NCBI GenBank assembly: GCA_000004985.1
Contig: GG738856.1
Source: Naegleria gruberi
Lineage: Eukaryota
Direction: 5' to 3' (one strand)
DNA: 64,000 bases
Position numbers and translations under genes: made by a program. This document shows, one piece after another, positions 209 through 33,798 of this stretch (within the stretch, counting starts at the first letter, position 1; each line of letters begins with the position of its first letter). The notes below the pieces were generated by a model. The model was given only the letters and a program-made list of their open reading frames with translations. It was not told where the DNA came from and did no database searches.

Positions 209-280
209 GGGACCATGGTCTAGTGGTATGATTCTCGCTTTGGGTGCGAGAGGCCGTGGGTTCGATTCCCACTGGTCCCC
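209..280 (+). tRNA. tRNA-Pro (anticodon TGG)
   Basis: Hand-folded cloverleaf: acceptor GGGACCA/TGGTCCC, T-arm GTGGG-TTCGATT-CCCAC, anticodon stem CTCGC/GCGAG with loop TTTGGGT (anticodon TGG); 72 nt including the discriminator. Confidence 0.7.
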
Positions 281-10379: not shown

Positions 10380-10385
10380 AAATTC

Positions 10386-10465
10386 GCGGTCTACAGGATT
10401 CGAACCTGTGCGGGTCGCCCCAATTGATTTCTAGTCAATCACCTTAACCACTCGGTCAAGACCGC
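10386..10465 (-). tRNA. tRNA-Ser (anticodon AGA)
   Basis: Reverse complement folds as GCGGTCT...AGACCGC acceptor, anticodon loop CTAGAAA, long variable arm (TGGGGCGACCCGCA), and T-arm CAGGTTCGAATCCTG. Confidence 0.75.
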
Positions 10466-14290: not shown

Positions 14291-14860
14291 ATGCTCGAAA
14301 GATACTTGAAATCCCTGCTGACAGGAAGCAAATTCAATCTACCAACAACCTTCTCTCAACTTTTCCGATCCCCTCATTTCGAAACCATGATGGGCATGGG
14401 TAATTTAGATTATGCTCATCCGGAGGTGAAACGAATTCTTCGTCATCACTCTCACGATCCAAAGACTTTCTTTGTATTCGAGCCTCCAATCGATGTCAGA
14501 GAACACGAGAAGAAATTCATCATTCATGCAGATGTTCCAGGCTTTCACAAGAATAATATTTCAGTGACGGTCACTGATGAAGAAAGAGGAGAAATTTGTA
14601 TTAAGGGAAATTTAGTAGATTTAGAGGAAAAACAAATGAAAGAGGAGGAACAAGTTTTTGGAAAGTATCTCATACAGGAAAGAGTTTTAGTTCCAGAATT
14701 TGAAAGGAAAGTAGTCTTGCATAATCCATCAGAAATTGATTGGGATAATATTAATGCTTCCATTGCTCATGGTCAACTCAATATTGATATTCCAAAGAAG
14801 GATGTTCCTTCCAAACCACCAAAGGAATCAAAAATTATTCCAATCTCTGAAGAACCTTAA
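14291..14860 (+). CDS. small heat-shock protein (HSP20/alpha-crystallin domain)
   Basis: 189-aa ORF containing FIIHADVPGFHKNNISVTV ... AHGQLNIDIPKK, the characteristic alpha-crystallin domain signature. Unspliced. Confidence 0.85.
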   Translation: MLERYLKSLLTGSKFNLPTTFSQLFRSPHFETMMGMGNLDYAHPEVKRILRHHSHDPKTFFVFEPPIDVREHEKKFIIHADVPGFHKNNISVTVTDEERGEICIKGNLVDLEEKQMKEEEQVFGKYLIQERVLVPEFERKVVLHNPSEIDWDNINASIAHGQLNIDIPKKDVPSKPPKESKIIPISEEP

Positions 14861-15311: not shown

Positions 15312-16470
15312 ATGGATCAATATTAGTAAGTACAAGACATGATGATTGTGGATTTAATCAATGATGCGGATATTCAAACAACAGTATCATTAAAATCTTG
15401 GGAAGAGGTTCTGAAGGTAAGTGGCTTGGTGAAATGTTCATGTCACTAATCAATCAATAGGACAAGTATTGTTAGCAGAACACAAGAAAACTCATGAAGA
15501 AGTTGCCATCAAGCGTATGGAATGGGCTTCTTTCGACGATGCTAACCTTCATTTAAACGAAGCTCAAAAGTTGCGAGATTTAAATCACAAGAATATTATG
15601 AAATACCTCAAGGTATTCTTGAACAAGTATAGTACAGACACTCACTTTGTTTGTCTGTGTATAGAGTACTGCCCTGGAGGAGATTTACAACAATTCATTT
15701 CGAGTACATGCAAGAAGGGAAAAATAGCAGAGAAGGATATTCTCAGCTATGCAGAACAAATAGCAGCAGGTCTTCAATATTTACACGAGCACAATATTAT
15801 TCACAGAGATTTGAAACCTCAGAATATTTTAATTGCTGCAGGTAGGTCACAAACATTTTCAATTGATTTTACAAATATTATAAGATGGTACACTTAAAAT
15901 TGGAGATTTTGGAATTAGTAGACAATTGGGAACTCAATCTATGGCCAATACTCAATGTGGTACTATTCAATATATGAGCTATGAAATGCTTAACATGGCA
16001 CCTTATGATCAAGCAACTGACATGTACTCATTTGGAGTGTAAGTTGATTTTAAAAAGCTCATATATTTTTCTAACTATTATGGTCAACCATTTCATTGGA
16101 TAGAATTCTTCTTCAAATGATTACTGGAAAGCAAATGATGATTCCTATGGAACTGAGAAAGAATCCAAACTTTCTCGTTGAATTGGAACATCAATGTGTC
16201 AAGACATTGGGCTACTCTCAGGAATTATTTGCCCTAGCCAAAAATTTAGTGAGCTATGATCCAAGAGAACGGCCAACGGCAGAGAAGGTTCTCAAATCCC
16301 TGACAAAAATCAGATCGAGCGACAAGCATGGAAATTTGAAATTGGTATTTAAGGATTTTAACCAATTATCTGACGTTTTAAAAATTAGAGTATTTTCCTT
16401 TTTACAAATTGAAGACATGTATCATGTAGGTCTATCATGTAGACAATATTATTGGTTATGGGAACAACAT
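15312..16470 (+). CDS. Ser/Thr protein kinase (NEK-like) with a C-terminal F-box motif; exons 15312..15325, 15385..15416, 15461..15841, 15885..16038, 16104..16470
   Basis: Hand-built model. MDQYY|IIKILGRGSEG|QVLLAEHKKTHEEVAIKRM has the Gly-loop and VAIK. HRDLKPQNILIAA|DGTLKIGDFG and DMYSFGV|ILLQMITG follow. The introns are 59, 44, 43 and 65 nt with GTAAGT or GTAGGT donors and YAG acceptors. The last exon continues in frame into LSDVLKIRVFSFLQIEDMYHVGLSCRQYYWLWEQH, an F-box consensus. This exon ends at a canonical GTAAGT donor (16471). Confidence 0.75.
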
Positions 16471-24055: not shown

Positions 24056-24171
24056 AGAGATTTCGCTATAGAATATATTGTGTAAAACAAAGTTGGAATA
24101 AACAATATAGGAAATGAGTGAAGTTAAGAACATTTGGAGTAATTTATTTTAGTGGATGTGATCCCCCTTAG

Positions 24172-24244
24172 CTCAGTCGGTAGAGCGTCAGACTGTTAAT
24201 CTGCAGGTCGGTGGTTCGAGCCCACCAGGGGGAGATTACTTTTT
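24172..24244 (+). tRNA. tRNA-Asn (anticodon GTT)
   Basis: Acceptor TCCCCCT/AGGGGGA, D-arm GCTCAGTCGGTAGAGC, anticodon loop CTGTTAA, T-arm GGTGGTTCGAGCCCACC. There is a 27-43 mismatch and position 1 is T (paired with A72), both unusual. Confidence 0.65.
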
Positions 24245-24290: not shown

Positions 24291-25409
24291 ATGGGAACAA
24301 AGCCATCACGTACCTTGATGCCAATACGAACCATCATTCAACAGAAATTAACTAAAAAAGTTCTATTACTCGGTACCTCCGATTCTGGTAAATCCACATT
24401 ATTCCACATGTTGCAATTGATAACTTTCGGCCATAAAGTTGATGAAAAGTTTGAAAATAATTTGCGAATTGTTTGCTCATGGGTTGTTGAGCGAATTTGG
24501 GAAGTGATGGGAGAGCAAGACCGAAATCACTTGAAAGATCTCATCAACCCAGAACTGAGATTAGTGTTCGAAACTGCACGAAATACTTGTTTAGCTACTG
24601 AATTGCAAAATAGAGATTGTTGTGAAATATTGGTCAATCTTTGGAAAATTCCATTCTTTAGAGAGTTTTACGAATCAGTGTGGAGTAGAGATGGAATCAC
24701 AATGTACGAAAATGTCAAGGAATTAGTTTCAAGAATTGAAAACAGGAAAATCTTTTCTCCATATTCATTAATTCATTGTAGGACGGCTGGAATGTCGACA
24801 GACGAACCAATCAGAAACAACATTGAACTGATCGATGTTGGAGGACAGAGAAAAGAAAGAAGGAAATGGATTTATTGCTTTGAAGATGTTCATACAGTGA
24901 TTTATATGGTTTCTCTTTCAGAATTTAATCAATTTTTATTTGAAGATAACATTACTAATAGAATGGAAGAATCACTATCCTTATTTAGTGAGGTTATGAA
25001 TTCGAGATGGCTTGGTCCTGCTCGTAACATAATTCTCTTTGTAAAACCAGATGTTCTATGGAAAAAATTGGAAAATGGAGTGAAATATGATAGAGAACTC
25101 AATACTAATATTATAGCAGAGCTAGACAGAATTCCTGATCAGTATCTTAAACTGGTTATCAACTCGATCATTTCAGAATATTTCAAGAAAATAGATAGAA
25201 CTACAATTGATTCCTATCATATTGTGAATACAATCTCAGAAGAGGATATCAAATCTGTTTGTGAAATAATCTTTGGAGAGAGAATAGATCAAAAAACAAC
25301 CTTCATCTCACCATGTATCATTCCTGACAACAATAGAATGATACGGTGCCTCTTCAATAATTATCTGAATGAAAAATTGACAGATATACAAATCATTACT
25401 TCCGACTGA
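24291..25409 (+). CDS. heterotrimeric G-protein alpha subunit (divergent)
   Basis: MGTKPS N-myristoylation context, LLLGTSDSGKSTLF P-loop, DVGGQRKERRKWIYCFEDVHTVIYMVSLSEF (switch II), NRMEESLSLF, and a degenerate NKxD (VKPD). 372 aa, unspliced. Confidence 0.8.
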   Translation: MGTKPSRTLMPIRTIIQQKLTKKVLLLGTSDSGKSTLFHMLQLITFGHKVDEKFENNLRIVCSWVVERIWEVMGEQDRNHLKDLINPELRLVFETARNTCLATELQNRDCCEILVNLWKIPFFREFYESVWSRDGITMYENVKELVSRIENRKIFSPYSLIHCRTAGMSTDEPIRNNIELIDVGGQRKERRKWIYCFEDVHTVIYMVSLSEFNQFLFEDNITNRMEESLSLFSEVMNSRWLGPARNIILFVKPDVLWKKLENGVKYDRELNTNIIAELDRIPDQYLKLVINSIISEYFKKIDRTTIDSYHIVNTISEEDIKSVCEIIFGERIDQKTTFISPCIIPDNNRMIRCLFNNYLNEKLTDIQIITSD

Positions 25410-25552: not shown

Positions 25553-27160
25553 TTAAAGAGTTGGATATTCTGCCTTATCATAACCATGAGGACGAGGAGG
25601 AATTAAGAATTGATTAACAGTTTGACTCATTTGAACAACTGGTTTCAGATATTTTACAGGTTGATAACTGAATGGAGTTTCTTCAAAACAACCAAGATGT
25701 TCCAATAAACGTGGAGCTCTCTTAATCATTCCCATCAATGACTTGGTTGCCAATGCAGCCATTGTATCAAAATGACGATATGGGACACCAAATTTCTCAT
25801 TCAATTCCTTCATCTCATCAGCTGAATATTCACCAAGATCTTGAACCCAATCATTGTACTTGGTCAGAGAGGTTGTTACATGATAGGATCCTCCTTGTTT
25901 GGATCTTCTCCAAAGACCATCGAGAGCACCACAAGTTCCCATCACTCCACAGCAATAGTCTGAGATTGGTAAGAGTGGCAAGACTGGTTCATCCAATCCT
26001 AAGGCCTTTCCTTGTTTCCAAGCAAGACCAGAGACACAATCAGCAATTTGTTGCCAACCAGATCTGTATGAAAGTGGACCATCATTTCCATAACAATTCT
26101 CAGAGACATAGACAATACCATAACCACGATCCTTTACCATCTCTGTTACTTGTTTGAATCCAAAACCTAATTTTTCCAAAGCTCCTGGTCTGTATCCTTG
26201 AACGAAAATATCACACTCCTTAATGAGCTCCCTCAGTTTTGATTTTCCTTCTTCAGTTTTCAAATCAATAAAACATGAATTTTGTCCAATATTATCCAAT
26301 TGGAATGCACTTCCATCAGGACTGTGTGGTCCAATAACTTTCAAAACTTGAGCTCCATATTCTGATAAATTACGACCAATGACAGGACCTGCAATAGCTC
26401 TCCCCAAACTCAAAACTTTAACACCATCAAGAATATTTCTTGTACCAGTAATTGGCTGAGGTTTTCCTTCTGAAATACTTTCAACTTCCCACAATGGCTT
26501 TGCATGAATGATTTGTCCGTGTTCACTTTCCAAAAATTCCTCTCTCGTCAAGCAAGTAACACCTGCTTGTTTGTATTGTTCATTTGAAACTTTCTCAATA
26601 TCAGAAGAGTTCCATTCCAATACCTTTTCTTGAATAAATGCAAATGCTTCAGCTGCATTGAGATTTTGATTATGTGGAATTCCCAACATGTCAAAAGTTG
26701 GTGTAGCATTCAAAGAACCATGCAAGTGATAGAATTTACCATCCTTACATTTGTAAATATTGGTACTTGCAAATCGATATTCATTACTGAATGTATCATG
26801 ATAATCAGTATTTGGTAAAATCTTCATAAGAGCTGGAGTGGCAGCAAACAGTACAGTATTCAAGTACATCAAGGCACGATCCAAATTGACTGTGACATTT
26901 TGCTCACCAAATCTTTCCTTACCAAGTAAATTTGCCAAACTTCCTTCAATTCCCTTCAGTACAGAAACTGCTTCTTGTTGTTTGACAGGACATGGAAGTA
27001 TTGGTTCCACAAGTCCAATACTTGATTCAAATTTGACCTTCTCCAAGAGTTCAACCACCTCTTGATCAATTCCAACTGGTAAATCCTTACCGATCGATTC
27101 AACAATTGTTTTAATAGTCTCTTCAAGTCTTGCCATTATAATAATACACAGATCACACAC
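25553..27160 (-). CDS. CoA-transferase family III (CaiB/BaiF-type) protein with a roughly 200-aa N-terminal extension
   Basis: GTRNILDGVKVLSLGRAIAGPVIGRNLSEYGAQVLKVIGP matches the family III signature (VLDLSRVLAGP...LGAEVIKVE). The probable start is the second Met (MARLEE, 27136). Confidence 0.8.
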   Translation of the reverse strand: MCDLCIIIMARLEETIKTIVESIGKDLPVGIDQEVVELLEKVKFESSIGLVEPILPCPVKQQEAVSVLKGIEGSLANLLGKERFGEQNVTVNLDRALMYLNTVLFAATPALMKILPNTDYHDTFSNEYRFASTNIYKCKDGKFYHLHGSLNATPTFDMLGIPHNQNLNAAEAFAFIQEKVLEWNSSDIEKVSNEQYKQAGVTCLTREEFLESEHGQIIHAKPLWEVESISEGKPQPITGTRNILDGVKVLSLGRAIAGPVIGRNLSEYGAQVLKVIGPHSPDGSAFQLDNIGQNSCFIDLKTEEGKSKLRELIKECDIFVQGYRPGALEKLGFGFKQVTEMVKDRGYGIVYVSENCYGNDGPLSYRSGWQQIADCVSGLAWKQGKALGLDEPVLPLLPISDYCCGVMGTCGALDGLWRRSKQGGSYHVTTSLTKYNDWVQDLGEYSADEMKELNEKFGVPYRHFDTMAALATKSLMGMIKRAPRLLEHLGCFEETPFSYQPVKYLKPVVQMSQTVNQFLIPPRPHGYDKAEYPTL

Positions 27161-27649
27161 AACAATTATTCAACTCAAAAAGCCAATGATGACAATTAAT
27201 GTTAATTTTTTTTTAATTCATTTCCCGACGACGCACAGTTAAACCTTTTTAAATCAATTACCGCCTCATCAAAAGAAATGGAAATATAACGCTTTTGCTG
27301 ATCAATATGATGACGATGATTGGAACTGAATGGTTTTGATAATATGTGCTGGTAGTAGCATTGTAAGGCGTAGCCTGCTTTAAATAATTTTCATTTTTTT
27401 TGTAAGCGGGATTGAACGCAGCGGTAAAGACTTTCCCGCCAAGCCCGAAATTGTGCTATTTGCTGATTTTGAGTGGGAACCCGAAAATGTTAGATTGATC
27501 CGAAGCCCAGTTGGTATTTTGAATAATTAGAAGGAAGGTTGTGACAAATTTTCAAAATAAAAACAATCAAATTGATCTCTGTAAAGTGTTTGATCAGTTT
27601 TTGAAGAGTATTTGTAAAATTGTAAAGTAATTGTGAAGAATTTGAGAAA
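27161..27649. promoter_or_regulatory. shared divergent intergenic region (putative bidirectional promoter) between the CoA-transferase and AtuA-like genes
   Basis: 489-bp AT-rich spacer between two head-to-head start codons. No motif was identified, so this is inferred from arrangement only. Confidence 0.3.
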
Positions 27650-29455
27650 ATGAAGAGACCTCTAAATATTGCAGCTTGTTCTGGAGTAACTGGTGACAAT
27701 CCGAATGCAATTTATGATCAAGCAGTTGGTGATCATCCAATCGATGTCATTATTGGTGATTATTTGGCTGAGGTTAATATTGCATGGCATGCATTGGCTA
27801 GAAAAACAGATCCATCCAAAGGATACGATGAGGGTTTCGTTGAGAATTTGAAACCAGCATTGCCAGTTTTAAAGGAGAAAGGTATCAAGGTTGTTGTGAA
27901 TGCTGGGGCCTTGAATCCTTCAGGTTTAGTCCAAGAATTGAGAAAGGTCTTGAATGAGCAAAAGATTGAAATGAATATTGCTTGGATTGAAGGTGATGAC
28001 ATTGTAAGAAAGATTCCTGAATTAATTGAAACTGGAAATGAGTTTATTCACTTGGATAATCCAAATGTCAAGTTATCCGAATGGAGATGCACTCCAATTT
28101 CTGCAAATGCTTATTTGGGTGCTTGGGGAATTGCCAAAGCATTGAATGAAGGAGCAGACATTGTCATTTGTCCAAGAGTTACTGATGCTTCACTTGTGGT
28201 TGGATGTGGTATTTGGTGGCATGATTGGAAAAAAGATCAATTTGACATTTTGGCAGGTGCTGTCATGACAGGACATTTAATTGAATGCAGTGCTTATATT
28301 ACAGGAGGAAATTATGCAGGTTTTAGAAATGTCAAGAATAATGTCGATTTACCATTTCCAATTGTTGAACTAGCTCATGATGGCAGTTGTGTCATTACAA
28401 AACATTCAAACACAAATGGTGAAATCTCACTTGGAACTGTCACTACCCAATTCCTATATGAAATTCAAGGACCTATCTATTTAAACCCTGATGTAACCTG
28501 TCATCTCAGTACTGCTCAAATTACAGAAATTGCTCCTGACAGAGTTGCATTGACAGGTATTAAGGGAAGTGCTCCATCCAAGCAAACTAAAGTTGCCATC
28601 TGTGGAATTGGTGGCTATCAAGTTGAATTCTCTGTTTACATGACAAGTCCAAACGTCCAAGAAAAGGAAGATCATTTCAGAAAGCAAATGATGAGGATGG
28701 TCAACCCAGAAAAATTCCTAGTTCTTGATGTGACCAGATATGGAGGACAAGTTCAAGATCCAAAATCTCAAGCAGAGGCAACTTGTCAAATTCGTGTTTT
28801 TGCTCAAGCTATTGATGCCGAAACAGTTTCGTTTAAGAATTTCACTGGACGAATCTTGTCAACTGGAATGCAAGGATTTGGAGGTTTCCACTTGAATATG
28901 GATTTCAGAACTGCTCAACCAAAACCTTTCATTGAATATTATCCAGCACTTCTTGATGTATCCTCTCTAGAACACACAGTTTTTGTAAACGACAAGGAAT
29001 TCATTGTAAACGATTTGGAAATTCCAAGACAAGAAATTTCCTGCTCAGTCAACCAACTTCCAACTCTCGAATTTGACCCTTCTAAATATCCAGAAACAAT
29101 CAGGGCTCCACTAGGAAGAGTAGCCCTTGCTCGTTCTGGAGATAAAGGAGGAAACATGAATGTTGGAATCTATGTCCTTCATGACCAAGCATGGCCATGG
29201 CTTAAATCCTTCCTCAACGAGGAAACTTTTAGAAAATTGCTTGGAAATGATAATTCTCCCGACTATATTATCGAAAGATGTGAATTTGAAAATTTGAGAG
29301 CTGTTCACTTTAAAGTGATTGGAATTTTGGGAAAGGGAGTTTCAAGTACTGCAAGAATGGATTCATTCGCCAAATCTTGGGGTGAGTTTTTGAGAGCTCG
29401 ACATGTGGACATTCCATTGGAAATTTATGAAAATTGCAGTGTAGATTTATTGTAA
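27650..29455 (+). CDS. AtuA-like protein (DUF1446 N-domain plus DUF4387-type C-domain; acyclic terpene utilisation family)
   Basis: The N-terminus MKRPLNIAACSGVTGDNPNAIYDQAVGDHPIDVIIGDYLAEVNIAWHALARKTDPSKGYDEGFV fits the DUF1446/AtuA N-terminal consensus. The length (601 aa) is typical of the family. Unspliced. Confidence 0.7.
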   Translation: MKRPLNIAACSGVTGDNPNAIYDQAVGDHPIDVIIGDYLAEVNIAWHALARKTDPSKGYDEGFVENLKPALPVLKEKGIKVVVNAGALNPSGLVQELRKVLNEQKIEMNIAWIEGDDIVRKIPELIETGNEFIHLDNPNVKLSEWRCTPISANAYLGAWGIAKALNEGADIVICPRVTDASLVVGCGIWWHDWKKDQFDILAGAVMTGHLIECSAYITGGNYAGFRNVKNNVDLPFPIVELAHDGSCVITKHSNTNGEISLGTVTTQFLYEIQGPIYLNPDVTCHLSTAQITEIAPDRVALTGIKGSAPSKQTKVAICGIGGYQVEFSVYMTSPNVQEKEDHFRKQMMRMVNPEKFLVLDVTRYGGQVQDPKSQAEATCQIRVFAQAIDAETVSFKNFTGRILSTGMQGFGGFHLNMDFRTAQPKPFIEYYPALLDVSSLEHTVFVNDKEFIVNDLEIPRQEISCSVNQLPTLEFDPSKYPETIRAPLGRVALARSGDKGGNMNVGIYVLHDQAWPWLKSFLNEETFRKLLGNDNSPDYIIERCEFENLRAVHFKVIGILGKGVSSTARMDSFAKSWGEFLRARHVDIPLEIYENCSVDLL

Positions 29456-29485: not shown

Positions 29486-30415
29486 ATGTTGGAAAAAATG
29501 CAACAAGAAGAAGAAAAATCAAAGAATTGTTTTGCTCTCTTTTCTGATCATGATGAAACAATTTGTTCTACCAAGCCGAGTCCACAATTAGCACCTCCCG
29601 ATCATCAATTTTTCAATAAATTTGGGAAAATCAAGATGGTTGTATGTCGAGTAAATAATTGTTTTGTAGTTTCGGAACACGATGAAGTATTTGTTGGTAG
29701 TAAGAGCGGGTGGCAACGATTGGGAACAAGTTTTAAATTTACCAATGAGAAAATAGTGCATATCAGTGCAAGTTATCATATTCTTGTTATGATTTTACAA
29801 TCTGGCAATACTACAAATATTGGGACAAGAGTATTTTGGTGTTTTATTAATACTAATGGAGGTGGTAATAAATTTGGAGAGACAATTACTGAATGTACAG
29901 AGTTGGTGGATCATTTCTCCAATAAGGAAGGACCTCAAACTACTACTTGGTATCATTTGCAAGATTTTGAATTGATGGATGGGGAATATGTTAATTATAC
30001 TTCATGTGCTGCATATGCCTGTACATTTATTACATCCCATGGAAGACTTTTTGCATGTGGTAGTAATCAATTTGGTGAAATAGCTCAACCAACAATTAGT
30101 TTTAGAACAAGTAATGTTATTTGCAAAGTTAATCTTTGTAATCTTGATCCTTTGAATGAATGTAAAAATCCATTCTTTGTCAAATCAGTGAATGGGGATC
30201 ACAATATTATTGCCTTGACAAAGGATCATAATATTTTCTATTGTGGATATCAAATGGAAGCTGGAGGTAAAGATCTACCAATGATGAGACAATTGAAACG
30301 ACATGACACAATGGAACCTTATGAATACAGGAATATCAAGAAAAAAGACGAGTTCAAGCACTGTTTTATGCCATGCAAGGGCTTGTGGAGCAACGATTTG
30401 GAATGGAATCTTTGA
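29486..30415 (+). CDS. RCC1-like repeat (beta-propeller) protein
   Basis: Repeats of the form hhxxxxxhhxxxSxGxxxxCGxNxFGEI (VVCRVNNCFVVSEHDEVFVGS; YACTFITSHGRLFACGSNQFGEIAQ; HNIIALTKDHNIFYCGYQ). The 3' end overlaps the next ORF in another frame. Confidence 0.55.
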   Translation: MLEKMQQEEEKSKNCFALFSDHDETICSTKPSPQLAPPDHQFFNKFGKIKMVVCRVNNCFVVSEHDEVFVGSKSGWQRLGTSFKFTNEKIVHISASYHILVMILQSGNTTNIGTRVFWCFINTNGGGNKFGETITECTELVDHFSNKEGPQTTTWYHLQDFELMDGEYVNYTSCAAYACTFITSHGRLFACGSNQFGEIAQPTISFRTSNVICKVNLCNLDPLNECKNPFFVKSVNGDHNIIALTKDHNIFYCGYQMEAGGKDLPMMRQLKRHDTMEPYEYRNIKKKDEFKHCFMPCKGLWSNDLEWNL

Positions 30416-31512
30416 GGTCAATTGAGAAATGCCGAGAATTGCTCTCGAAAAATTTTGACAATTTCACAAATTATACAGTGGCTTGCACTTATAAATTACT
30501 GAGTCGATATGAAATGGGATATGGAAGGGTTAATTATTCGAGATTCTATCTGAATTGTGTCAAGTCCTATTTTGATGGAAATGAGCCAAAGAATTCATTT
30601 GAGAGGAATATGAAACAATTGATTAGAACAGCTGAAATTGTGGACTCACATAATGAGATGGGTCATTTATTTGTCAAGAATTTGCCAGAAATATTTGAAG
30701 CAATTACCAATCTTCCATTACCAGATGAAATTATTAAGGTATTGCAGCAAGACTCCGTCAACTCAACTAATTATTTGGATCAAATGAAAATTATTGAAAT
30801 AATTGTAAATCACACTGTCCAATTCTCTAAAGAAAAGACAAATTCCTATAAGACAGAAGAACAGAGAAAGTTTATTGACAACTATCTTGAGAATTTCAAA
30901 TCCATCTTTTTGAATGGTTTGAGCATTTCAATGCTTATGCGCTCTGGACAGGGAAATGAACTAATTGAAGAAGCTGCTTTGAAAGTTACCTATTCATCAG
31001 AGACTGAATACTTTCCCTTGCTTCCTATATTTGTTCTGCCATATGTTGCTTTGGCCAGTCGTTTCCATTTACAAATAGTGAAACAGATCGAAAATGGGCA
31101 AACACAACAGGAAAGCAAGAAGAATCCAACAAGTGTAGATTATTACGAAATTCTAGCCAAAGATTTACTAGCTTTGAGAGTGCTTGCAAAGAGATACAAA
31201 CGAGTTGAATTTTCTTATGGAACCATGATGAATGAAATGGACGAAATTTTAAAGAAGAAAGTTGAACAATCATCTCAACAGAATGTGGAATTCAGCACAA
31301 CTTCTGACGTGGCCACGCCACAAACTACTCACGTGGAGAGTTCTTGTCTAATTGATGAACAGCCACTTTCCTTTTTATTGGGATTTGTTAATGAGGCAGC
31401 TCAACACTCACAACCATTCGAAAGTTCAAACCAACACATTGCAGAAAATCCATTCCACTTTCTTTCTGAGGATTTTTCACAAATGCTCTCTCCCGATTTT
31501 TCATTCTTTTAG
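30373..31512 (+). CDS. hypothetical protein (possibly the continuation of the RCC1-like gene after a frameshift)
   Basis: 379-aa ORF with no recognised domain. Both frames are open across 30325..30415, and no GT..AG intron of the right phase restores continuity. The start could be a downstream ATG (30403). Confidence 0.45.
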   Translation: MQGLVEQRFGMESLRSIEKCRELLSKNFDNFTNYTVACTYKLLSRYEMGYGRVNYSRFYLNCVKSYFDGNEPKNSFERNMKQLIRTAEIVDSHNEMGHLFVKNLPEIFEAITNLPLPDEIIKVLQQDSVNSTNYLDQMKIIEIIVNHTVQFSKEKTNSYKTEEQRKFIDNYLENFKSIFLNGLSISMLMRSGQGNELIEEAALKVTYSSETEYFPLLPIFVLPYVALASRFHLQIVKQIENGQTQQESKKNPTSVDYYEILAKDLLALRVLAKRYKRVEFSYGTMMNEMDEILKKKVEQSSQQNVEFSTTSDVATPQTTHVESSCLIDEQPLSFLLGFVNEAAQHSQPFESSNQHIAENPFHFLSEDFSQMLSPDFSFF

Positions 31513-32880: not shown

Positions 32881-33798
32881 TTAATATTTATCTTTCAGGT
32901 CACGTACAGTTTGCAAGATTTTAACACTTGACCAAGTCTTTAAATCATCCTCAGTGGCAGAACCATCTTTAATCATCTTATCAAAGAATTCTCTTCTTGT
33001 TTCAAAAGATTCCAAGAGGGCTGCTTTAAAGTATGGATTGTACTCTTTCTCATCTTGCCATGTGGAAGGAACAGTTCCATGAGATTCCTCCATCAAGTTC
33101 TTATACTTGTTCAAATATTTTCTACTTGTTTCTGTATCAGAAATCTTATCCACAATGAATTGCATATTCTTGAGTGTATATTCATGACCACAACACAATA
33201 GCATTCTCTCTGGATCTTTAATTTCCTTATTCAATTTTACAATATTATCAAACATTTGTTGAGCAGTTCCTTCAAAGAATTTTCCACATCCTCCCACAAA
33301 GAATGTATCTCCACAGAATAAACAATCGAAATTGCCTCCCTCTTCATCTGATGTTCTGACAAGATAACAAACATGTCCATTGGTATGACATGGAGTGTGA
33401 TAAGCCTGAACCACAGTCTTATCATCAAAGATTGTAAATGACTCCAAATCACTCTTCAATTCTTGATTGACTCCTTCACATTCTCCATTTCCAACAACTT
33501 GTACTTTTTCCAATGATGAAAATTCCTTCCAATTCTTTACAAAATACAAATTACCTCCGGCATGATCCCAATGTTTATGAGTCGTCAGAATAGTAGAAAG
33601 ACTCTTTTGATTGAATAATGATTGTCCCTCATTGCTATTCAAATATTGATGAATCTTTTTAGAATCGGAAGGATCAACCATTGCATATTGATTAGTATGA
33701 TGATTGATCAGAAAATAACAATAATTATCGGAGAGGATTGGTAGAATATGCAGTGAGAGTTTGCGACTGAGAGGAATGGTGCGTGTATGGATGGACAT
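32881..33798 (-). CDS. hydroxyacylglutathione hydrolase (glyoxalase II, metallo-beta-lactamase fold)
   Basis: ILPILSDNYCYFLINH...AMVDP, THKHWDHAGGN (HxHxDH metal site), GHTNGHVCY, and CCGHEYT. 305 aa including a C-terminal extension. Confidence 0.85.
   Translation of the reverse strand: MSIHTRTIPLSRKLSLHILPILSDNYCYFLINHHTNQYAMVDPSDSKKIHQYLNSNEGQSLFNQKSLSTILTTHKHWDHAGGNLYFVKNWKEFSSLEKVQVVGNGECEGVNQELKSDLESFTIFDDKTVVQAYHTPCHTNGHVCYLVRTSDEEGGNFDCLFCGDTFFVGGCGKFFEGTAQQMFDNIVKLNKEIKDPERMLLCCGHEYTLKNMQFIVDKISDTETSRKYLNKYKNLMEESHGTVPSTWQDEKEYNPYFKAALLESFETRREFFDKMIKDGSATEDDLKTWSSVKILQTVRDLKDKY

Follow-up and report, generated by a model that had tools for sequence, protein, structure and literature searches.

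How does one pair of adjacent genes come to be shared by actinomycetes, fungi and an amoeba, and what do the two encoded proteins do together? This question is raised by a locus of Naegleria gruberi within a 64-kb stretch of contig GG738856.1 (hereafter the window). Here, a gene for an extended family III coenzyme A (CoA) transferase (NAEGRDRAFT_65120) and a gene for a fused AtuA-family protein (NAEGRDRAFT_65121) stand head to head and are read divergently. We favour, at a probability of roughly 60%, the reading that the pair is a self-contained two-enzyme unit, carried as a cassette from actinomycetes to fungi and from fungi to Naegleria, and, more tentatively, working by the mechanism proposed below. 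That the two genes form one functional unit is very likely; linkage in an overlapping operon, and then again in divergent pairs in two eukaryotic supergroups, argues for joint action of their products.

AtuA/DUF1446 proteins number in the thousands. The chemistry of this family is only beginning to emerge, by way of a citramalate lyase structure, and the range of AtuA substrates to be considered becomes smaller with a partner enzyme whose linkage has lasted in bacteria, in fungi and in an amoeba. Moreover, the locus exemplifies a linkage kept through inter-domain, and probably inter-supergroup, transfers; few such cases exist, and this one is useful for understanding how metabolic units spread. 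The unit appears to be of a known kind, namely a catabolic CoA-transferase and lyase of horizontal origin, and what appears new is the unusual transferase subfamily, the barely characterised lyase family and the apparent movement of both as a cassette.

The gene pair in fungi and actinomycetes

Both genes are real and intact. With the ATG at 27136 taken as start, the minus-strand transferase open reading frame (ORF) has 100% identity to XP_002679904.1, and the plus-strand AtuA ORF (27650-29455) is 100% identical to XP_002679771.1. The two uninterrupted, head-to-head ORFs described in the original prediction, one of CoA-transferase family III and one AtuA-like, are thus present and equal to the RefSeq models. 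The transferase and its G-alpha neighbour recur side by side on an independent environmental contig from a near-identical strain (L170; 99.4% nucleotide identity), and therefore the locus is not an assembly artefact or a contaminant; the transferase codons of window and contig differ by 6 synonymous and 3 non-synonymous changes. Contamination and misassembly are likewise ruled out by the host-like composition, the flanking Naegleria genes and an orthologue in N. lovaniensis.

The best match of the AtuA protein outside Naegleria is that of Aspergillus niger (47% identity). In three assemblies of this fungus, a 602-amino-acid (aa) AtuA gene (An05g02520, plus strand) and a CoA_transf_3 gene for 570 aa (An05g02530, minus strand) stand head to head, and the same arrangement of AtuA and transferase is found in the basidiomycete Desarmillaria ectypa. 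Scanning metagenomes with the transferase returned 80 fungal-like loci with a guanine-plus-cytosine (GC) content of about 50%, and 38 of these were informative, their upstream side extending over 2.5 kb beyond the transferase. AtuA lies on the opposite strand at a distance of 0.5-1.25 kb in 13/38 informative loci, and in any other orientation in none. The AtuA-paired transferases form a single clade (183/200 bootstraps); the other fungal clade, with Pyronema as an example, is unpaired. Clustering of flanking ORFs at 12 paired eukaryotic loci revealed no third common gene, only antisense ORFs and chance links. Two metagenome contigs of 34% GC (L097 and L098; OBUW01000080.1 and OKKB01000031.1) carry a full-length transferase of the unpaired clade and are possibly from a yeast or a protist.

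Bacterial genomes, scanned with AtuA, also gave 80 loci. Three of them, from Gordonia desulfuricans, Amycolatopsis and Pseudonocardia kujensis, have a gene for a ~495-aa protein after AtuA on the same strand, all three examined loci being co-directional, and in Gordonia the AtuA stop overlaps the transferase start. With 42-44% identity to the query, these three loci rank among the most similar in bacteria. The ~495-aa protein has the Naegleria architecture, a ~230-aa extension followed by CoA_transf_3 profile positions 1-210, and shares 31% identity with the Naegleria protein across aa 150-445. This extended transferase is widespread in actinomycetes, where it is 69-81% conserved, and the closest AtuA matches from bacteria include 20 or more on contigs that agree in length and organism name with contigs of such a transferase. 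The search for the same pairing thus found it in A. niger, D. ectypa, metagenome contigs and actinomycete operons. Because it recurs in fungi, fungal-like metagenome contigs and actinomycetes, the pairing is far beyond chance.

Beyond this transferase-paired subtype, most bacterial AtuA loci are atu/liu-like clusters. A carboxylase of the methylcrotonyl/geranyl-CoA type is a neighbour in 47 of the 80 loci, an enoyl-CoA hydratase in 42 and an acyl-CoA dehydrogenase in 36. Genes for these carboxylases, hydratases and dehydrogenases are absent beside the Naegleria pair, the fungal pairs and the actinomycete transferase-paired loci. In Amycolatopsis (L014 8257-13236), a major facilitator superfamily (MFS) transporter, AtuA and the extended transferase stand in a row on one strand, and the A. 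niger pair also adjoins an MFS transporter. The presence of such a transporter in both hints at an imported acid substrate.

Phylogeny and origin of the pair

Trees were built by neighbour-joining from Kimura distances with 200 bootstraps each, and the actinomycete partners served as root for the transferase. In the AtuA tree, Naegleria and all named fungi stand apart from all named bacteria (200/200), and the fungi are monophyletic without Naegleria (193/200). In the transferase tree N. gruberi and N. lovaniensis are monophyletic (200/200). With the paired sequences added, the fungal transferases are monophyletic without Naegleria (138/200); with divergent members added, Jimgerdemannia falls outside Naegleria and Dikarya (199/200), and a transferase paralogue of Gloeophyllum also branches below them. 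The topology (actinomycetes,(Naegleria, fungi)) is shared by both genes, neither of which falls within the bacteria. At signature columns the Naegleria transferase has the fungal state in 33 and the actinobacterial state in 1, and the AtuA protein has 11 and 8, respectively. Identity of Naegleria to fungi is 36-47%, compared with 31% to the actinomycete transferase. Eukaryotes among the best 120 matches of each protein are limited to fungi and Naegleria, the AtuA entries sourced from EukProt are just two (N. gruberi and A. niger), and neither protein has an annotated N. fowleri homologue in these matches.

The GC content of the two genes (0.377 and 0.383) compares with 0.354 +/- 0.022 for 18 window ORFs, so that their composition is not atypical, and GC at third codon positions (GC3) is typical of the window in both. 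Their codon-usage distances of 0.53 and 0.52, against a mean of 0.81, place them nearer to the pooled usage than most of their neighbours. No deviation from the flanking genes is therefore seen in GC or codon usage, which is consistent with an old event. Indeed, since GC, GC3 and codon usage are host-like and N. lovaniensis has an orthologue, any transfer would be old. The N. lovaniensis transferase (57% identity) lies in a partly syntenic position, head to head with an RCC1-like gene, which resembles the N. gruberi order minus AtuA, and no AtuA remnant was found in the 21.9-kb N. lovaniensis locus. The gene (L007 10001-11922) is annotated as encoding 598 aa with extra insertions, and its frame shifts between ~10348 and ~10573, consistent with an annotated intron that is absent from N. 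gruberi.

From these sequence comparisons a horizontal origin is likely, as the original prediction had suspected. Its picture of two primarily bacterial families is to be amended: family III CoA-transferases are universal, only the extended subfamily is restricted, and the nearest relatives of both proteins are fungal. Direct nesting in bacteria gives way to a likely route from bacteria through fungi to Naegleria. We propose that the history began with an AtuA-then-transferase operon in actinomycetes, which would have entered an early fungus and there become a head-to-head pair, the transferase being duplicated later in fungi. The pair would then have passed as one piece to a Naegleria ancestor, before N. 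gruberi and N. lovaniensis split, and the AtuA gene would afterwards have been lost in the N. lovaniensis lineage. Entry into Naegleria as one transferred cassette is probable, and the direction of this eukaryote-to-eukaryote step would be from fungus to Naegleria. If true, a divergent gene pair would have crossed from one eukaryote to another and into a heterolobosean.

Two other histories are less parsimonious than this cassette route. Fungi and Naegleria may each have received the genes separately from related actinomycetes, with the head-to-head order arising twice. The operon form is held by actinomycetes, which are soil neighbours of both recipients, the AtuA tree has Naegleria as sister to the sampled fungi and not nested among them, and the 8 AtuA signature columns keep the bacterial state, all of which would suit such a history. 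However, fungi and Naegleria attach to the bacterial tree at the same point in 200/200 bootstraps, the transferase shares 33 fungal-specific states against a single actinobacterial one, and identity is higher to fungi than to the actinomycete transferase. Moreover, the divergent orientation is identical in fungi and Naegleria, whereas the three bacterial loci are co-directional, and we consider independent acquisition distinctly unlikely. Less probable again is vertical inheritance from an early eukaryote, with loss almost everywhere but in fungi and Naegleria. The age of the genes in Naegleria, with 57% identity between species and a fully host-like composition, is in keeping with it, as is the span of the transferase across fungi from Mucoromycota to Dikarya. 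Nonetheless, very many independent losses would be needed, the best 120 matches of each protein hold no eukaryotes besides fungi and Naegleria (with two EukProt AtuA entries), the N-terminal domain family of the transferase has just 215 cluster representatives, and the transferase tree sets Naegleria within fungal diversity.

Architecture of the two proteins

In Pfam, the transferase is assigned to CoA_transf_3 (E 8e-39; 134.2 bits against a gathering cut-off of 23.3), with a match confined to profile positions 1-197 of 366. Compared with canonical family III enzymes (Frc, CaiB, SUGCT, mesaconyl-CoA transferase and BbsEF) it has about 235 extra residues at the N-terminus, and about 134 residues follow the catalytic Asp as against more than 220 in the canonical enzymes. 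The putative catalytic residue, Asp393 (codon 25958-25960), which opens the helix behind the Rossmann-like half, is invariant in 22 aligned sequences and in register with the catalytic Asp of human SUGCT (PDB 9br6) and of canonical bacterial enzymes. SUGCT, whose substrates are hydroxymethylglutarate and glutarate, is also the closest solved transferase structure. The AlphaFold model of the transferase has a mean predicted local distance difference test score (pLDDT) of 88 and a predicted template modelling score (pTM) of 0.92, and its fold alignment spans about 256 of the 527 residues.

The extension alone has no Pfam match. Nevertheless, fungal homologues align with the transferase end to end, the N-terminal ~235 residues included, and E55, Y128, H137, H139 and S141 are invariant across them. 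The extension family is small, with 215 cluster representatives (50% identity) from 1.84 billion proteins at E<=1e-3; matches are always N-terminal within full-length matches, and the named members are fungal, including the Mucoromycota species Jimgerdemannia. Using hhalign, aa 231-526 align with canonical family III positions 16-306 (E 2.6e-35), and N-terminal aa 37-229 align with positions 156-359 (E 2.3e-5, probability 76%), where E55 occupies the position of the catalytic Asp. This argues with moderate strength that the extension may be a diverged partial duplicate of the Asp-helix plus small-domain segment. A simple circular permutation found no support as such, as the C-terminal half retains an Asp-helix of its own and a partial duplication fits better.

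The partner protein matches Pfam AtuA (PF07287; E 2.5e-157, 524.6 bits against a threshold of 22.8) over profile positions 2-435 of 437 and AtuA_ferredoxin (PF23544; E 2.4e-13, 50.8 bits against a threshold of 27) over positions 2-112 of 113. Its AlphaFold2 model (pLDDT 90) matches the structure of the citramalate lyase CmlAB in a fold search, with 16% identity to CmlA, and a profile from 28 homologues finds PDB 9erq_A (E 6.3e-5). A plain sequence search of the PDB with the AtuA protein found nothing, and thus the match to CmlAB comes through fold and profile searches only. CmlAB (PDB 9erq/9evf) is built from an AtuA-family large subunit and a DUF4387 small subunit; the same architecture of AtuA-fold large part and DUF4387-fold small part is present in the Naegleria protein, where both are fused in a 601-aa chain. 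Citramalate lyase is the only structurally characterised member of the AtuA family, and by analogy with it the Naegleria protein may be a lyase.

Predicted function

The two-subunit CmlAB of Raoultella planticola cleaves citramalate directly to pyruvate and acetate (bioRxiv 10.64898/2026.01.16.699985). A DUF1446 gene beside methylaspartate ammonia-lyase was noted in 2015, and the CmlAB genes stand with methylaspartate-pathway genes (PMC4682846); this neighbourhood is explained by the cleavage of citramalate by CmlAB. CmlAB acts on the free acid and its genes are not beside a CoA-transferase, unlike the Naegleria gene. Moreover, no gene of the methylaspartate pathway, such as methylaspartate ammonia-lyase, glutamate mutase or mesaconase, lies beside the Naegleria pair, whose neighbours are a G-alpha and an RCC1-like gene. 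Pseudomonas AtuA, from the atuABCDEFGH cluster, belongs to the same Pfam families as the Naegleria protein, but atu-type neighbours such as those of Pseudomonas are not beside the Naegleria, fungal or actinomycete transferase-paired genes. Where PMC13399572 cites Förster-Fromme and Jendrossek 2006, no biochemical role is assigned to the Pseudomonas protein. VdAtuA3 of Verticillium dahliae is described as a staurosporine target and as a mitochondrial partner of complex I subunit Nuo1, with no enzymatic function given and no adjacent CoA-transferase described (PMC13399572). It comes from the fungi, the kingdom of the closest relatives of the Naegleria gene, and is likened to it here as a member of the AtuA family.

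In the C5-dicarboxylate routes of the 3-hydroxypropionate bi-cycle and of itaconate degradation, a succinyl-CoA:citramalate/itaconate CoA-transferase works with a citramalyl-CoA lyase. The logic is the same, activation of a dicarboxylate by a family III transferase coming before its cleavage by a lyase; these routes use a CitE/HpcH-type lyase, whereas that of the Naegleria pair would be AtuA-type. The conserved catalytic Asp, the kinship of the transferase core with SUGCT-like dicarboxylate transferases and the lyase chemistry of the one characterised AtuA-family enzyme together suggest a mechanism. The transferase would load CoA on a small carboxylic acid, or recycle CoA, the likeliest substrate being a hydroxy-branched dicarboxylate akin to citramalate or 3-hydroxy-3-methylglutarate. 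The AtuA-like enzyme would then cleave the C-C bond beside a tertiary alcohol in a retro-aldol-type reaction, giving acetate or acetyl-CoA and a keto product. Both the substrate and the order of the reactions are what we infer from the likenesses above, and the specific sequence of CoA loading or recycling by the transferase followed by AtuA-type C-C cleavage is put forward only tentatively. Equally tentative is the wider idea that this is a new two-enzyme route acting on a hydroxy-branched dicarboxylic or branched acid and moved intact from actinomycetes through fungi to Naegleria. If true, such a route would help to assign a function to the long-unknown AtuA family.

Two alternatives concern what the proteins do. 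The transferase-like protein may not be a CoA-transferase at all, and instead be a structural or regulatory partner of AtuA or have another family III activity such as that of a racemase, in which case the unit would perhaps work without CoA esters. This would suit a Pfam match that covers half of the profile, a fold alignment of only about half of the chain, the working of CmlAB without CoA and the inclusion of racemases, for example AMACR, in family III. Nevertheless, Naegleria, fungi and actinomycetes all keep the catalytic Asp and the Rossmann-like half that binds CoA, and the actinomycete orthologues are 69-81% conserved, as expected of an enzyme, so that we regard a non-transferase as unlikely. 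The least probable of all the alternatives is a part in the classical breakdown of acyclic terpenes (citronellol/geraniol) or in leucine-type catabolism of branched acyl-CoA. The carboxylase, hydratase and acyl-CoA dehydrogenase neighbours at many of the 80 bacterial AtuA loci speak for such a role, and the proposed lyase chemistry would suit the cleavage of hydroxy-isohexenylglutaryl-CoA. However, a fungus with AtuA knocked out shows normal growth on citronellol (PMC13399572), the genes around the Naegleria pair have no relation to such a pathway, and the role is unlikely because the three kinds of gene are missing from the transferase-paired loci. Of the acyl-CoA/terpenoid module of the original prediction, what remains is a linked acyl-CoA-type unit, adjacent in three distant lineages; the terpenoid half is not borne out, atu-type genes being absent.

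N. gruberi is reported to favour lipids over glucose for energy. An acyl-CoA-type module in this species, with AtuA lost in N. lovaniensis and no N. fowleri homologue among the best matches, may point to a metabolic difference within the genus.

Several points weigh against the pair being a transferred two-enzyme unit of this kind. As regards origin, the trees are neighbour-joining trees only, with long branches; Naegleria AtuA is sister to the sampled Dikarya clade (193/200) and not nested in it, and the nested position of the transferase hinges on rooting with remote actinobacterial sequences and on the divergent fungal ones. No AtuA was found beside the Mucoromycota (Jimgerdemannia) transferase, one copy of which is at a contig end. 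The RCC1-like neighbours of N. gruberi and N. lovaniensis, from which the synteny is suggested, share 29% identity over 114 aa only. As regards function, both Naegleria proteins are known from sequence and models; a literature search on these gene IDs and on AtuA/DUF1446 function returned no functional or expression data for these genes, and the N. gruberi gene IDs are mentioned in no paper found. VdAtuA3, the sole studied fungal homologue, is reported as a complex I partner and not as an enzyme, identity to CmlA is just 16%, so that the substrate may differ considerably, and the kinship of the extension with family III depends on an hhalign probability of 76%.

The locus and its surroundings

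The features of the locus are collected in Table 1.

Table 1. Coordinates of the two genes, their parts and the spacer between them (positions in the window)
Feature	Position	Strand	Details
Extended family III CoA-transferase, coding sequence	25553..27136	-	527 aa + stop; NAEGRDRAFT_65120
CoA_transf_3 core	25835..26431	-	aa 236-434; Pfam stretch 244-434; putative catalytic Asp393
N-terminal extension	26432..27136	-	aa 1-235; conserved; invariant E55; Y128/H137/H139/S141 'YHLHGS' motif
Divergent spacer, presumed bidirectional promoter region	27137..27649	.	513 bp
Fused AtuA-family protein, coding sequence	27650..29455	+	601 aa + stop; NAEGRDRAFT_65121
AtuA (DUF1446) domain	27665..28981	+	aa 6-444
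C-terminal ferredoxin-like domain	29108..29407	+	aa 487-586; invariant RSGDKGG motif; equivalent of separate DUF4387 subunit CmlB

The spacer had been given as 489 bp, counted from a GTG at 27160. This start is a product of bacterial-code ORF listing, and the ATG at 27136 is preferred since it matches the RefSeq model exactly; the real spacer is longer, as listed. The pair is thus divergent and less than 1 kb apart (513 bp), and the genes of the fungal-like contigs are separated by 0.5-1.25 kb. The spacer has no tRNA or Rfam match, and its only repeats are short and of low complexity. Aligned without gaps to the environmental contig, the transferase-proximal 89 bases match at 81/89 positions, and a one-base 5' offset explains several of the mismatches. 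From its position, the spacer could serve as a shared promoter that co-regulates both genes. A scan for sigma-70 promoters was set aside as not relevant to a eukaryotic host. The spacer contains an E2F-site-like motif, TTTCCCGC, at 27432-27439 and a near copy of it, TTTCCCGAC, at 27221-27229. Exact TTTCCCGC occurs twice in the window against 0.27 expected, and a count of 2 was reached in 4/100 shuffles.

The window is AT-rich eukaryotic DNA of about 35% GC with assembly gaps. GC is zero at ~45.5-49.5 kb and ~51.5-63 kb, which are N runs (scaffold gaps), and the share without sequence is about a quarter of the window.

The intron structure of neighbouring genes was judged from ORFs and Pfam coverage. 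A protein kinase ORF about 10 kb away (15469-15897, plus strand) covers profile positions 18-133 of 263 and is thus split by at least one intron, so that introns do occur near the intron-less pair, as had been claimed. As evidence of origin this carries little weight, given that the G-alpha gene, like several more of the neighbours, also consists of a single ORF. The G-alpha gene (24291-25409, plus strand), which is convergent with the transferase and also found on the environmental contig, spans positions 16-329 of its 333-position Pfam profile within one ORF, and long single ORFs make up many of the window's genes. Introns are present in orthologues of the pair, both in the fungal ones (A. 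niger and Desarmillaria, from gene span against product length) and in the annotated N. lovaniensis transferase.

On the AtuA side, an RCC1-like ORF (29486-30415, plus strand) overlaps the next ORF (30373-31512, plus strand) by 43 nucleotides in another frame, and the two may be one intron-bearing gene or two genes. Three tRNA genes lie in the window: Asn-GTT (24162-24234, plus strand) just upstream of the G-alpha gene, and Pro-TGG and Ser-AGA, which lie at 209-280 (plus strand) and 10385-10465 (minus strand). Lastly, an HSP20-family gene (14291-14860, plus strand) and a glyoxalase II-like gene with Lactamase_B and HAGH_C domains (32881-33798, minus strand) are also single ORFs.

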